A stretch of 64,000 nt of DNA from a virus. This document shows, piece by piece, positions 5,694 to 31,035 of this stretch. The stretch lies in IMG/VR virus record IMGVR_UViG_3300032287_003808, positions 67,435 to 131,434 of that record; one strand, written 5' to 3'. Position 1 is the stretch's first letter. Each line of letters begins with the position of its first letter. The notes under the pieces were generated by a model. The model did no database searches, was not told the origin of the DNA, and was given only the letters and a program-made list of their open reading frames with translations. Made by a program: the position numbers and the translations under genes.

Positions 5694-5918
5694 CTACCAT
5701 CTCGTCACTTGGTCATCATTGTTTTTGGTTGTCATGTATTCCGCATACGGGTCTTCACAGTTCTCAATCGCTCTAACTATGTCACTTTTCAAATACGCAG
5801 CGTCCATCACGCTTAACTTACTTGTGTCGTAACCCATCGCCTTCAAGAAATCCATTACTGCGATGAACTGATCCATTACGTTCACATCTACACCATCAAG
5901 TTTTTTCAAATTTTTCAT
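5694..5918 (-). CDS. early hypothetical protein
   Basis: Own promoter motif, CGGTTATG start. Confidence 0.75.
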   Translation of the reverse strand: MKNLKKLDGVDVNVMDQFIAVMDFLKAMGYDTSKLSVMDAAYLKSDIVRAIENCEDPYAEYMTTKNNDDQVTRW

Positions 5919-5960: not shown

Positions 5961-6173
5961 TCAGAGTCTGTATCCCAACATATAATTGCCAATGTAACTA
6001 TCTAAACTTGTTCCGCGGCAAATGTCATACCCTGTTTCCGCCTTGTCGTTATCACGTTTCGCATACTCTTCTAACGCGGTGTACACTTCAGGTATCAATA
6101 TTTTCTTCCACCCTGACAACTGTTCTGCTTGGATTCTCATTCCGTCCACTACTGTAAAAACTTTTCTTTCCAT
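5961..6173 (-). CDS. early hypothetical protein
   Basis: Own promoter, AAAGAAACGGTTATG start. Confidence 0.75.
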   Translation of the reverse strand: MERKVFTVVDGMRIQAEQLSGWKKILIPEVYTALEEYAKRDNDKAETGYDICRGTSLDSYIGNYMLGYRL

Positions 6174-6213
6174 AACCGTTTCTTTAAATATACTTTAATA
6201 TACGTAACTGTCT

Positions 6214-6348
6214 TTAGTCATTAGTGTCCTTAGCTAACTCTTCAAACTGTAATATCAACAACGGAACCAATCCGATTAAACCCCAATCGTTCCCGAACGC
6301 CAATAATATCGTTCCAAATACTCCTACTGTAATACCAAATGTTCTCAT
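6214..6348 (-). CDS. 44-aa membrane peptide (not in ORF track)
   Basis: MRTFGITVGVFGTILLAFGNDWGLIGLVPLLILQFEELAKDTND; own promoter. Confidence 0.7.
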   Translation of the reverse strand: MRTFGITVGVFGTILLAFGNDWGLIGLVPLLILQFEELAKDTND

Positions 6349-6395
6349 AACCGTTTCTTTAAATATACTGAAATATACGTAATGTCATTTGCGAC

Positions 6396-6706: not shown

Positions 6707-6784
6707 TCAATTTAGAATATACAATAAAGCAAATTTAACACCTACTACTCCCACTGCCAATAATAAACATACTAAAACTTCCAT
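6707..6784 (-). CDS. 25-aa hydrophobic peptide
   Basis: MEVLVCLLLAVGVVGVKFALLYILN; own promoter. Confidence 0.6.
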   Translation of the reverse strand: MEVLVCLLLAVGVVGVKFALLYILN

Positions 6785-6834: not shown

Positions 6835-6993
6835 TTACTCCTTTATAACGTGTTTAATATACTCTCCCTCATCGAACCAATAAAACGCTAGTCGTCCGTC
6901 TTCAAGTCGTAACGTTATCACCGCTTGGTCTAAATTGCCATCCATACTCAAAATGTCGGCTCCGTGTTTCTGTAAAAATGTTTGCGTTCTCAT
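6835..6993 (-). CDS. 52-aa hypothetical protein
   Basis: MRTQTFLQKHGADILSMDG...KHVIKE. Confidence 0.6.
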   Translation of the reverse strand: MRTQTFLQKHGADILSMDGNLDQAVITLRLEDGRLAFYWFDEGEYIKHVIKE

Positions 6994-7048
6994 GTACCCC
7001 GAAAGCCCGATTACTCGGGCTCACAAGGTGTATATTTAAGATAACCGG

Positions 7049-7471
7049 TTATGAAGCGGTGTCGTTAATTACTACTTTTGGTCTTCCAAGTGGCATCACA
7101 CCACCATTAGCGGCTTTCTTGGCTTCCATTTCCGCCAATCGTTTCTGGCGCGCACTTTCCCCATTCACCGGGCGACCTTTTTTCAACTCACCATTTGCTC
7201 GTTTCGTCTCTAACTCCACTAACCGCATTTGGCGGGCACTGTCTGCCTTAATTGGTCGACCCTTTTTCAACTCACCATTCGCTCGTTTCTCAGCCAACTC
7301 GGCAATTCGTATTTGGCGGGCACTATCTGCCTTAACTGGTCGGCCTCGTTTCCCTGTTGTCTCTGGCTTGGCCATGTTTGCCAACATCTCTTCCAATACT
7401 ACGCTCTTCATTGTATGAGCTCCTTTAATTCCTGCTGCAATCGCTGTTGCTACTAATTCATTTCTTTTCAT
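7049..7471 (-). CDS. AT-hook (GRP) repeat DNA-binding protein, Ala-rich copy
   Basis: Three ~29-aa repeats KGRPxxxxSARQxRxxELxxKRANGEL plus a fourth GRP. Confidence 0.8.
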   Translation of the reverse strand: MKRNELVATAIAAGIKGAHTMKSVVLEEMLANMAKPETTGKRGRPVKADSARQIRIAELAEKRANGELKKGRPIKADSARQMRLVELETKRANGELKKGRPVNGESARQKRLAEMEAKKAANGGVMPLGRPKVVINDTAS

Positions 7472-23156: not shown

Positions 23157-23507
23157 TTATTTAACAAATAATTGTACTAATAATATTCCAAAGGCTAATA
23201 TTAAGCAAATGATAGTTTTCATTGTTAACGGTTCATTAAATACAGACCAACTCAACCAACTAAACACCATCGCACCAATTGAAAATCCAATTAAACGTGA
23301 TGGCCACATTTGACCATCAAATGCTGTTATCATATTTTTAACCGAGTACATAAACAACATTGATATTGGAATACCCATTAATACTGTTAACCAATAATGG
23401 GTTTTAAACCATTCATACTTCATAGGGCCTTGTAGTTGAAAAAATGTAGCTATTTGAGCTAATAATCCAAAAATCATTCCTAATAATAATGCTCCAATAT
23501 TTACCAT
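23157..23507 (-). CDS. DMT/EamA-like 4-TM membrane protein
   Basis: 4 TM segments; LSWSVFNEPLTMKTIICL. Confidence 0.7.
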   Translation of the reverse strand: MVNIGALLLGMIFGLLAQIATFFQLQGPMKYEWFKTHYWLTVLMGIPISMLFMYSVKNMITAFDGQMWPSRLIGFSIGAMVFSWLSWSVFNEPLTMKTIICLILAFGILLVQLFVK

Positions 23508-23510
23508 ATT

Positions 23511-23612
23511 TTATACTATACAACCACAATTACTGCATTTAACTATTGTTAGACCATTCATGTGGCGTACTGCTACATAAGTCTTTTTGTGTTCACATTT
23601 AACTGTTTCCAT
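23511..23612 (-). CDS. 33-aa zinc-ribbon peptide
   Basis: CEH...CSNC; own promoter. Confidence 0.6.
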   Translation of the reverse strand: METVKCEHKKTYVAVRHMNGLTIVKCSNCGCIV

Positions 23613-23664
23613 AACTTTTTATTTTAATATACGAAATTTCTTTTGCTTAAACAATTCCTTTAAT

Positions 23665-23702
23665 AAAAAAACCTGCCGTGCGTTCGTATCCACACGGCAG
23701 GT
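23665..23702 (-). terminator. intrinsic terminator
   Basis: ACCTGCCGTG-N12-CACGGCAGGT followed by TTTTTT. Confidence 0.85.
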
Positions 23703-23728
23703 AAAAGAAACGGTTATGAAGCGTTTTG

Positions 23729-23787
23729 TAGTCAGGACAGGATTCGAACCTGTGGGTGCCTACCAGCGTATAATTGCTTACCTGACT
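23729..23787 (-). ncRNA. 59-nt tRNA-like RNA with rudimentary anticodon arm
   Basis: Acceptor AGTCAGG/CCTGACT-A, T-arm ACAGG-TTCGAAT-CCTGT, D-like AGC/GCT, only a GGT-AGGC-ACC mini-hairpin. Confidence 0.7.
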
Positions 23788-23853
23788 TACCCCGAATCTT
23801 ATAGTAGCGGCACCTTTACGCGGCCGTCGGTTCTACTTGCGACGATTTGTTGC

Positions 23854-24657
23854 TTAGGCTGCTATATATTTAGCAGCCACTGCAAACAATTCTTTATTAA
23901 CTTTCAAGTCTTGATTGAAGTTCTTGATTCTACGAGCCTTTCTACTTCTATTTCCCGCTACGTAGTTAAAGTCTCCATCCAAAATCTTCTCTTGAACCAC
24001 ATTAAATATTGACCACAAGTCACTTCCTTCATCTTCCTTACGAACTGGTTTCAATAGTTCCTTAGCGTCAACTGTAATCCGTTTCATTTCATCTTCATTG
24101 AATCGTGTTGCTAATGCTTTCAAAGCAAACTCAACTGCTTGTTTCTCATCCAGTTGTATACTCTTCATTTTATTCATTGACTCAACAGTCAATGGTAGAC
24201 GTTCAACCATTTCCCGGATCTTTACTTGTAGTTCTTCAAATGTATACCCTAAGTGTCTCATCTTGACATCTTCAAACTGTTCAGTTGAAATTACTAGTCC
24301 GTTCTCACATACCATTCTAAACAAACCAGCTGTAAATGTAAATGCATTTTTACCATCATGGCTATTTGTTAATAGAATCTGTGGAAAAACATCATCACCA
24401 TCTGTACCATTAATTACTACTTCTGGGTTTCTAAATACAATCAGATGTTTCTGGAATCCTACACCTTTACGTGCTTTAACTTCCTTGGCATCTACTACTT
24501 GCCATCCTAATTGTTTCATGTCATCCACAATTACTGATGTTGGGATGTGAGTGTAATGTTGTGATACATTACTAGCCGCTGTGGCTGTGAATACGCTCGG
24601 AGCGATTCTTTTGATTTGCTCATTTGTCAAAAATGAGTCTTTGCTTAGATCTAACAT
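23854..24657 (-). CDS. DUF932/DUF945 family protein
   Basis: LLTNSHDG, AGLFRMVCENGL, DLWSIFNVVQE. Confidence 0.9.
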   Translation of the reverse strand: MLDLSKDSFLTNEQIKRIAPSVFTATAASNVSQHYTHIPTSVIVDDMKQLGWQVVDAKEVKARKGVGFQKHLIVFRNPEVVINGTDGDDVFPQILLTNSHDGKNAFTFTAGLFRMVCENGLVISTEQFEDVKMRHLGYTFEELQVKIREMVERLPLTVESMNKMKSIQLDEKQAVEFALKALATRFNEDEMKRITVDAKELLKPVRKEDEGSDLWSIFNVVQEKILDGDFNYVAGNRSRKARRIKNFNQDLKVNKELFAVAAKYIAA

Positions 24658-30589: not shown

Positions 30590-30674
30590 TGGAGAGTTAT
30601 TTAATGTCATTTTTTCGTATCTTTCAACGTTCACGATCTCTCTTAACTGACAAACGCGAGTCGGTATTAAGGTG

Positions 30675-30748
30675 TGGACCAGCCTGGGTTCGAACCAGGG
30701 ACTTCAACATTATGAGTGTTGCACTCTAACCAACTGAGTTACAGGTCC
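30675..30748 (-). tRNA. tRNA-CAT, probably Ile2 (lysidine) rather than Met
   Basis: Cloverleaf, anticodon loop CTCATAA, C4-G69/C5-G68 TilS-type pairs. Confidence 0.85.
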
Positions 30749-30912: not shown

Positions 30913-31035
30913 TAGTCAGGACAGGATTCGAACCTGTAATGGTTGTTAGCGGCTTTGTTGACGGGCGGTACAGCTTCCACACTGCATCTCCCAATACCAA
31001 TTCTAACTCAGCGTTTACCATTCCGCCACCTGACT
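30913..31035 (-). ncRNA. 123-nt tRNA-like RNA with expanded anticodon region
   Basis: Acceptor AGTCAGG/CCTGACT-A, D-arm GCGGAATGGTAAACGC, T-arm ACAGG-TTCGAAT-CCTGT, ~70-nt middle. Confidence 0.7.

Follow-up and report, generated by a model that had tools for sequence, protein, structure and literature searches.

A conserved hairpin behind a minimal tRNA-like element of an uncultured lake phage: a candidate small RNA complementary to the start sites of a gene array

The predicted 3' end of the transcript of a DUF932 protein gene, in the 64,000-nucleotide (nt) stretch of phage DNA analysed here (the window, positions 67,435 to 131,434 of IMG/VR record IMGVR_UViG_3300032287_003808), is a conserved, selected RNA in which a hairpin with a covarying stem exposes a loop of constant sequence. 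The hairpin lies on the minus strand between a 59-nt element resembling a transfer RNA (tRNA) and an intrinsic terminator, and its loop is complementary to the sequence surrounding the start codons of many genes in a single array. These observations suggest, with a likelihood that we place a little short of even, that the tRNA-like element punctuates the transcript and frees a small RNA from its 3' end, and that the loop of this RNA would pair with the start sites of the array and repress their translation.

As an earlier note on this DNA had stated, the minus strand carries a tRNA-like element (23729-23787) followed by a trailer and a strong terminator, and direct reading and folding of the sequence bear this out. 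The trailer, CAAAACGCUUCAUAACCGUUUCUUUU, fills the 26 nt between the tRNA-like 3' end and the terminator (23728-23703). What the note overlooked is that the trailer is itself a hairpin (23708-23726), in which a stem of 5 base pairs (bp), AAACG/CGUUU (23726-23722 with 23712-23708), closes the 9-nt loop CUUCAUAAC (23721-23713), the complement of GUUAUGAAG. A pyrimidine tract, (C)UUUU (23703-23707), separates the hairpin from the terminator (23664-23702), which consists of a 12-bp stem containing eight G-C pairs (23702 to 23671), an 8-nt loop and a run of seven U residues. Folded together, the 136-nt stretch reaches -46.4 kcal/mol (z = -3.9), a value that none of 200 shuffled sequences attained.

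The same arrangement recurs in related phages. A scan of IMG/VR for a tRNA-like 3' end together with TTCATAAC returned 10 stretches, and a looser scan returned 46, comprising 21 true modules and 25 unrelated stretches; with the window included, these amount to 21 distinct trailer sequences (23 rows), each situated between a tRNA-type 3' end and a terminator. Aligned on the loop, the 21 sequences are constant at all nine loop bases (YUUCAUAAC), and the stem exists in at least five versions, all of which pair: AAACG/CGUUU, AACUG/CAGUU, GCUG/CAGU, (A/G)CUGCU/AGUAGU and AAUAAGUG/CCCUUAUU. Each of the six stem pairs shows changes on both sides, 88.3% of stem cells are paired as against 25-52% in controls with slid partners, and the covariation score of the stem was reached by none of 500 shuffles. 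An additional version, AAUCG/CGAUU, is found at three loci (L199, L244 and L245) where the hairpin directly ends a DUF932-like open reading frame (ORF). The G-U pairs within the third and fourth stem classes fit an RNA of the minus strand only, as they become A-C mismatches on the opposite strand. The terminator stems vary in sequence among relatives, with pairing always kept, and the (U)UUCUUUU(UU) tract is present in every type A module listed, type A being the form seen at 23708-23726. At one locus (L130, 12668-12709) an extra small hairpin, GGGCAUAGCCC, separates the 3' stem strand from the U tract, and the same insertion occurs in lake contigs.

A search that left the loop free, specifying only a T arm, 16-34 nt and TTCTTTT, recovered 19 stretches, of which 12 are the module, with the same loop in 12 of 12, and seven are unrelated trailers. 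Elsewhere the loop varies twice, as UUUCAUAAC in L128 and as CUUCAUAAU in L306; each is a C-to-U change that preserves the pairing to GUUAUGAA(A/G). Among the other tRNA-like 3' ends listed, no hairpin-plus-terminator trailer of the same kind was seen except at L005, with L117 missed by the rule for T runs. At 21 loci downstream of DUF932 homologues the module is present in three (L253, L258 and L259), four more have a tRNA-like element followed by something different, and the remainder lack both; DUF932 genes and the module are therefore only loosely linked.

The array to which the loop is complementary extends from about 5.9 to about 26.9 kilobases (kb) of the window and holds approximately 50 minus-strand genes, each with a cassette composed of TT(A/T)CGTATATT, an A-rich leader and (G)GTTATG, which in RNA is GUUAUG. 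Such promoter-leader cassettes are present in all relatives examined, and their promoter does not fit a scan with the sigma-70 consensus. In the genome of the window (G000), 35 of the 51 cassettes identified by the strict motif C[GA]TATATT start with GTTATG, and 26 of the 51 offer at least eight contiguous pairs to the loop; in the five relatives compared (G001-G005, of which G001 is 100% complete), cassettes starting with GTTATG number 12 of 37, 12 of 37, 7 of 13, 14 of 37 and 10 of 26. None of the opposite-strand occurrences of the cassette motif, of which there are 1 to 12 per genome, starts with GTTATG. The start context is concentrated in this one array, being found at 31 of the 54 minus-strand ORFs of at least 60 amino acids between 72 and 95 kb of G000 as against 12 of 137 elsewhere on the same strand. 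Cassette starts include GUUAUGAAG, GUUAUGAAA and GUUAUGGAA; the commonest 9-mers are GTTATGAAA, GTTATGGAA and GTTATGACA, and the complement of the loop is the most common family of start 9-mers in the array. All six genomes have GUUAUG(A/G)A starts to which the loop is complementary. Each small gene has a single cassette, often with a GGAAT block about 30 nt upstream.

The long complementarities to which the earlier note drew attention are also real. The 16-mer AAAGAAACGGTTATGA occurs exactly at 23704-23719 on the plus strand and at 6345-6360 on the minus strand, so that the trailer is a perfect complement of the leader and start codon of gene 6214-6348, with the strongest predicted duplex (-24.0 kcal/mol); with one mismatch it occurs at 6170-6185 on the minus strand, where 15 of 16 nt complement the leader and start of gene 5961-6173. 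Matches of 10 nt at the genes starting at 5918 and 6784 were likewise found as described, and GGTTATGAA occurs 12 times, 10 of them on the minus strand, against 1.05 expected. Allowing up to two mismatches, AAAGAAACGGTTATGA has four matches where 0.13 are expected, a number reached by none of 100 shuffles. Across the cassette starts as a whole, the mean duplex energy of the real trailer beats that of all 50 shuffled trailers in six of six genomes; in G000 it is -11.2 compared with -6.3 for the shuffled trailers, the best of which reaches -9.4.

The length of the 16-nt match, however, is a feature of this genome alone, a point the earlier note had missed. It arises because the 3' stem strand and pyrimidine tract, together CGUUUCUUUU, happen to complement the A/G-rich leader of a subfamily comprising the genes that start at 6784, 6348, 6173 and 5918, and the start of gene 6214-6348 is thus the best predicted target in this genome only. 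G001-G005 offer, at gene starts, no same-strand match better than 10-11 nt of generic leader or start sequence, and in five further relatives (G006-G010), which are just 28-52% complete so that targets may be missing from them, the sole exact copies of AAAGAAACGGTTATG are the trailers themselves. Nor did the relatives reveal the covariation between trailer and target starts that the note had named as a check: the flanks of the hairpin covary with each other, keeping the stem, and not with the targets. The note's view of the trailer as a regulator of shared starts is therefore upheld in part, in that the trailer is a conserved, selected RNA whose loop complements the start context of the array, and not upheld as regards the 16- and 15-nt pairing, which is absent from relatives.

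The window contains a second copy of the hairpin on the minus strand at 7044-7060, where the stem ACCG/CGGU closes the same loop (7056-7048) and the UAA stop codon of an AT-hook ORF lies within the loop. This copy corresponds to the repeat of the 13-mer CGCTTCATAACCG (7046-7058) that the earlier note had correctly placed at the 3' end of the AT-hook gene. On the RNA-sense strand of G000, YTTCATAAC occurs twice, each time within a hairpin whose stem has 4 bp or more, and every other occurrence is the antisense of a gene start. The G002 orthologue of the second copy comes after another tRNA-like element. Beyond the second hairpin (7005-7043) the plus strand reads as a cassette promoter (GTGTATATTTAAGATAA...GGTTATG); there is a weak hairpin, GCCCGA-GUAA-UCGGGC, at 7020-7005, followed only by UUUC, and the next ORF (ATG at 6993) has no cassette of its own. 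This type B form, consisting of the hairpin, an opposite-strand stretch of cassette promoter and a weaker hairpin, recurs at eight loci (L128, L212, L213, L219, L234, L236, L248 and L250). In the type A copy of the window, an opposite-strand TTCGTAT lies within the terminator loop exactly 26 nt before the ATG, a spacing also found in the promoters of genes 6214-6348 and 5961-6173. An inverted promoter-leader-start cassette thus seems to have been co-opted as an RNA hairpin and maintained by selection, giving rise to the module.

In the mechanism that we favour, the 3' end of the DUF932 transcript would act as a composite non-coding RNA made up of a pseudoknot, the minimal tRNA-like element, the hairpin, the U-rich tract and the strong terminator. 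The tRNA-like element, an acceptor-T minihelix with a discriminator A and without CCA, would be a punctuation mark: cleavage by host RNase P at 23787 and by RNase Z after 23729 would leave a stable RNA of about 65 nt (23728-23664) that could accumulate in the infected cell. The loop, aided in this genome by the adjacent CGUUUCUUUU, would in vivo pair with the GUUAUG(A/G)A(G) start region and occlude the start codon, lowering translation of most genes of the array, and the small RNA would be the RNA counterpart of a class-wide translational repressor of presumed early genes. RNase P, RNase Z and the CCA enzyme need no more of a tRNA than an acceptor-T minihelix; this processing logic is proposed because of that modest requirement, because the phage's tRNAs lack encoded CCA, and because members of the tRNA-like family directly precede leaders, ATGs or tRNAs.

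Several observations weigh against this proposal. Most sets of loops were collected with patterns that fix TTCATAAC, and with it eight loop bases, and the unbiased sets (from the loop-free scan and from searches anchored on DUF932 or on the pseudoknot) are small. The long complementarity is not conserved, and the 6-9 AU-rich pairs that remain are weak for a stoichiometric regulator of dozens of messenger RNAs (mRNAs); in G005 the best shuffled trailer (-10.31) nearly equals the real one (-10.40). Because neither the loop nor the start context varies appreciably within the group, regulator-target covariation is not observable. The first C of the loop pairs with a G at +6, yet the commonest targets have A at that position, so pairing alone does not explain the constancy of the loop. 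In relatives GTTATG is found on only about a third of cassettes, the proposed RNA would be made from within the very array it is to repress, and the assignment of that array to an early class is drawn from its architecture.

In a rival reading, a phage or host protein would recognise the loop sequence of the hairpin, which would mark the transcript end for processing, stabilisation, packaging or control of termination, with the antisense likeness reflecting only its origin from an inverted cassette. The constancy of all nine loop positions, including the first C that the commonest targets leave unexplained, would be expected of such a signal, as would the unvarying position of the hairpin at the transcript end just upstream of a terminator and its company, the tRNA-like family and the pseudoknot, which are conserved motifs of a processing-like kind. 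The origin itself is shown by L128 and the type B copies, which retain a whole inverted promoter-like stretch, and is echoed in the promoter-like 26-nt spacing of TTCGTAT in the window. Yet no candidate protein is known, both loop variants are exactly those that retain pairing to the start context, and it would be a striking coincidence if a relic kept for other reasons had as its loop complement the commonest family of start 9-mers; we regard this explanation as unlikely. Mimicry of the anticodon arm of tRNA-Met or tRNA-fMet, which would let the hairpin bind or divert a factor that recognises this arm (a synthetase, modification enzyme or defence anticodon nuclease, for example), is suggested by the shared UCAUAA with CAU at its centre, in the order U33-anticodon-A37-A38 of Met tRNAs, by the loop CUCAUAA of the phage's own tRNA-Met (30674-30748), and by the nearly constant attachment of the hairpin to a tRNA-like body; anticodon-arm mimics that bind synthetases do exist, as in the thrS operator. 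The loop is of nine rather than seven nt, however, stem lengths range between 4 and 8 bp, some copies, at the ends of AT-hook and DUF932 ORFs, lack a tRNA-like body, and the position of the hairpin 3' of the acceptor end means that it is no part of a chargeable tRNA, all of which makes this reading quite improbable.

The remaining alternatives give the hairpin a different strand or no role. If the functional strand were the plus strand of the window, an inverted cassette promoter could drive an antisense transcript or a decoy mimicking the start site GUUAUGAAG, and indeed type B copies (7020-7058 in the window, the second site of G002 and loci such as L128) carry a cassette-like promoter on the opposite strand, and the variant TGTATATT is also found in ordinary cassettes. 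Most copies, being of type A, lack a promoter motif there, though, the terminator is oriented for the minus strand, the G-U pairs of the stem turn into A-C mismatches and no ORF is conserved on the plus strand; this is very unlikely. A functionless, neutral relic of an inverted duplication of the promoter-leader cassette would account for a 16-nt identity seen in this genome only, among cassettes that are repeated about 50 times and recombine, but it is disfavoured to the point of being highly improbable because a relic would not keep its loop constant while stem changes compensate, as they do in at least five versions over 21 sequences. The plus-strand ORF from the ATG at 23716, which the earlier note had itself named as the competing feature, has a leader-like context and is open for 98 codons in the window; in 20 relatives the reading frame that begins at this ATG extends over 4 to 45 amino acids and falls in three frames relative to the tRNA-like element (hence 4 to 98 amino acids over 21 loci), and its N-terminus, VRTGFEP, is merely the antisense of the T arm. 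That it is the real gene is scarcely credible.

The proposal of a small RNA directed at start sites can be extended, in a form that we hold to be rather doubtful, to a wider one in which the invariant 9-nt loop would be a master anti-start-codon for the dozens of GUUAUGAAG starts, resembling an over-extended initiator anticodon loop and allowing class-wide translational shut-off by RNA, and in which anticodon-less tRNA mimics and the pseudoknot would punctuate polycistronic transcripts so that these are cut into mRNAs and small RNAs, in the way that mitochondria use tRNAs. What would be new is the use of a class-wide start consensus as target, of a seed resembling an anticodon loop and of anticodon-less tRNA mimics as handles; we know of no earlier phage small RNA aimed at the start-site consensus of a whole temporal gene class. 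The RegA protein of phage T4 represses many early mRNAs as a class through a common sequence near their start codons, and if the proposal is true an RNA loop would do the same across a temporal class of the phage's own genes, a similar effect without homology. The hosts probably lack Shine-Dalgarno pairing, which would leave the context of the start codon as the thing to mask. A large and apparently undescribed family of tRNA mimics would gain a function as processing handles, or a natural 'tRNA scaffold', and a candidate new structured RNA, the pseudoknot, would gain a context beside them. Short, conserved motifs that abound in lake metagenomes make the hypothesis directly testable.

Several known systems come close to the proposed RNA, which is a member of none of them. 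The C4 antisense RNA of phages P1 and P7 is reportedly freed by RNase P from a longer transcript and masks a ribosome-binding region with exposed loops; it thus resembles the RNA proposed here in being phage-encoded, antisense, released by a tRNA-processing enzyme and dependent on a loop for its block of translation. C4 has a single specific target region, whereas the complement here is the start context of dozens of genes; a separate tRNA-like body precedes the regulator here and the cut would be on the 3' side of that body, and the phages are uncultured lake phages rather than temperate enterobacterial ones. There is no sequence or Rfam match between the two, and C4, a model that we take to be in Rfam, is absent from the 11 Rfam matches at E <= 10 for 23300-24200. 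In Escherichia coli, the 3'ETS-leuZ trailer of glyW-cysT-leuZ is said to be liberated by tRNA processing and to act as an Hfq-dependent sponge for small RNAs. It too is a trailer between a tRNA-type 3' end and a terminator; here, unlike there, the body is a tRNA mimic rather than a real tRNA and the predicted partners are mRNA start sites. In murine gammaherpesvirus 68 (MHV68), tRNase Z cuts at the 3' end of tRNA-like sequences to release downstream regulatory hairpins, the tRNA-linked microRNA precursors; it differs in being a eukaryotic virus with an RNA polymerase III promoter inside the tRNA and products that enter the microRNA pathway. The SpF41 sRNA of Streptococcus (RF02435) has the same layout of an acceptor-like stem around a T arm followed by a terminator; the match is weak (23.5 bits against a gathering score of 52, E = 0.4), and membership was rejected.

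The tRNA-like element itself has a 7-bp acceptor stem (AGUCAGG/CCUGACU), a T arm, ACAGG-UUCGAAU-CCUGU, that carries GGUUCGAAUCC, and a discriminator A at 23729, features that it shares with tRNAs. Its interior consists of two 3-bp mini-arms, with neither an anticodon arm, in whose place the fold shows a 3-bp stem and a 4-nt loop, nor an encoded CCA, which is absent from the phage's own tRNA genes as well. ARAGORN calls only a tRNA-Met and a tRNA-Leu in the window, and Rfam RF00005 has no match at E <= 10 for 23729-23787; with neither a cloverleaf nor a readable anticodon, a true tRNA is ruled out, and the earlier note was right to call the element a mimic. Its final 27 nt also form, unchanged, the 3' end of a paralogous 123-nt RNA on the minus strand in the tRNA cluster (30913-31035), which has the same acceptor and T arm and about 65 nt in place of the anticodon arm. 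ARAGORN is silent on this RNA too, and its Rfam tRNA score of 40.2 bits comes from its ends only.

Both RNAs belong to a family with constant ends, 5' AGUCAGGU (AGUCAGGUGGCGGAAU...) and 3' ...ACAGGUUCGAAUCCUGUCCUGACUA(C), and wholly different middles, a definition that the 59-nt element fits with its non-tRNA middle. The acceptor, D and T parts are constant and the variable middles span about 25-90 nt. The 22-nt constant 3' end occurs at no fewer than 156 sites in at least 120 IMG/VR stretches (loci L004-L123), often several times per contig, and the six genomes compared hold 10 members, one or two in each, of 58-122 nt by a regular expression that leaves out the discriminator A and so counts the 59-nt element as 58; this is the shortest member seen, the others being 72-122 nt. 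ARAGORN assigns to family members anticodons that are odd or undetermined, or none. Many members directly adjoin an A-rich leader and ATG, a tRNA or the hairpin on their downstream side. In L012, L042, L330 and many others, an ATG with an A-rich leader follows within 10-20 nt of the tRNA-like element, a layout reminiscent of the way tRNAs punctuate transcripts in mitochondria. A body found ahead of the hairpin in one phage may be located elsewhere in a different one, which suggests that bodies shuffle by recombination through their constant ends; one body of 117-118 nt, common to G003 (47546) and G005 (38959), holds GUUCAUAAC right before the T arm. A role of the bodies as antisense RNAs was rejected, no complement of 12 nt or more having been found in the genome. 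In four lake or freshwater metagenome runs, the summed depth of contigs (contigs only) over 23708-23775 exceeds that of the flanks 10- to 100-fold, and the constant tRNA-like end must therefore be very common in those waters; no difference among those listed falls inside 23705-23729 in the four runs, a result not used as evidence.

A conserved, pseudoknotted motif on the minus strand (23791-23837) is located between the stop codon of the DUF932 gene and the tRNA-like element; in this motif P1 pairs 23837-23833 with 23807-23803, P2 pairs 23831-23827 with 23795-23791, and P3 (GGC/GCC) encloses CGCGUAAAGGU. The motif GGCCGYGUAAAGGUGCC is found in 40 IMG/VR stretches (loci L280-L313), usually wedged between tRNA or tRNA-like genes. 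In 27 distinct sequences, nine of 13 pairs show changes on both sides (four of five in P1 and five of five in P2), and 82.6% of cells are paired compared with 26-54% when partners are slid; the invariance of P3 follows from the search pattern, in which it was fixed. The junction between P1' and P2' is just 7 nt, UAUAAGA in the window and CAAGAAA or UAGAAA in others. No Rfam family matches the motif, including ribozymes of the hepatitis delta virus (HDV) type. It has the nested P1-P2-P3 double pseudoknot of HDV-like ribozymes, whose theta subfamily, according to PMC10879173, also lies beside tRNA or tRNA-like genes of Caudoviricetes; the same text describes a P4 and a catalytic cytosine at the first J4/2 position in HDV-like ribozymes, and proposes for theta ribozymes by phage tRNAs a role in tRNA end processing. 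The window motif lacks P4, shows no constant cytosine where one would be expected, and was not filed with these ribozymes; unlike theta ribozymes as that text describes them (a comparison with the description, not with the theta consensus), it has a different conserved L3, CGYGUAAAGGU. It is possibly a processing element or a candidate ribozyme. Just after the pseudoknot, a small hairpin, CUCG-GAAAGA-CGAG, whose stems covary (for example UUUG/CAAG), is present in L280, L289, L294, L299, L302, L304 and others, and it also occurs elsewhere in the tRNA clusters of these phages.

The source record comprises 131,434 bases with an estimated completeness of 82%, the window being its right half, and nearly all genes of the window are on the minus strand. 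The stretch was recovered in DNA runs from freshwater and lake metagenomes. A comparison of the region with 50,697 phage records by megablast and blastn gave no DNA match to a named phage, and the DUF932 protein, encoded upstream of the tRNA-like element, is the sole product of the region with relatives among named-phage records. The best of these (42% identity) is from Flavobacterium phage immuto, in which no comparable RNA is annotated beside the DUF932 relative. A literature search by keywords and sequence strings found nothing on the module among the papers listed, those found by sequence strings being judged by title and abstract; a catalogue of IMG/VR structured RNAs (PMC10690425) covers tRNA-like candidates, in its accessible part, in general terms only, and its supplementary lists may include the tRNA-like family. 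In GTDB representative genomes, the 22-nt constant tRNA-like end occurs in only 18 stretches, all of them contigs of metagenome-assembled genomes, and the hairpin in none of the 18. The phages are probably a freshwater group infecting Bacteroidota, and a weak hint at such hosts comes from the GTDB contigs, nine of the 18 carrying lineage names that fall under Bacteroidota.

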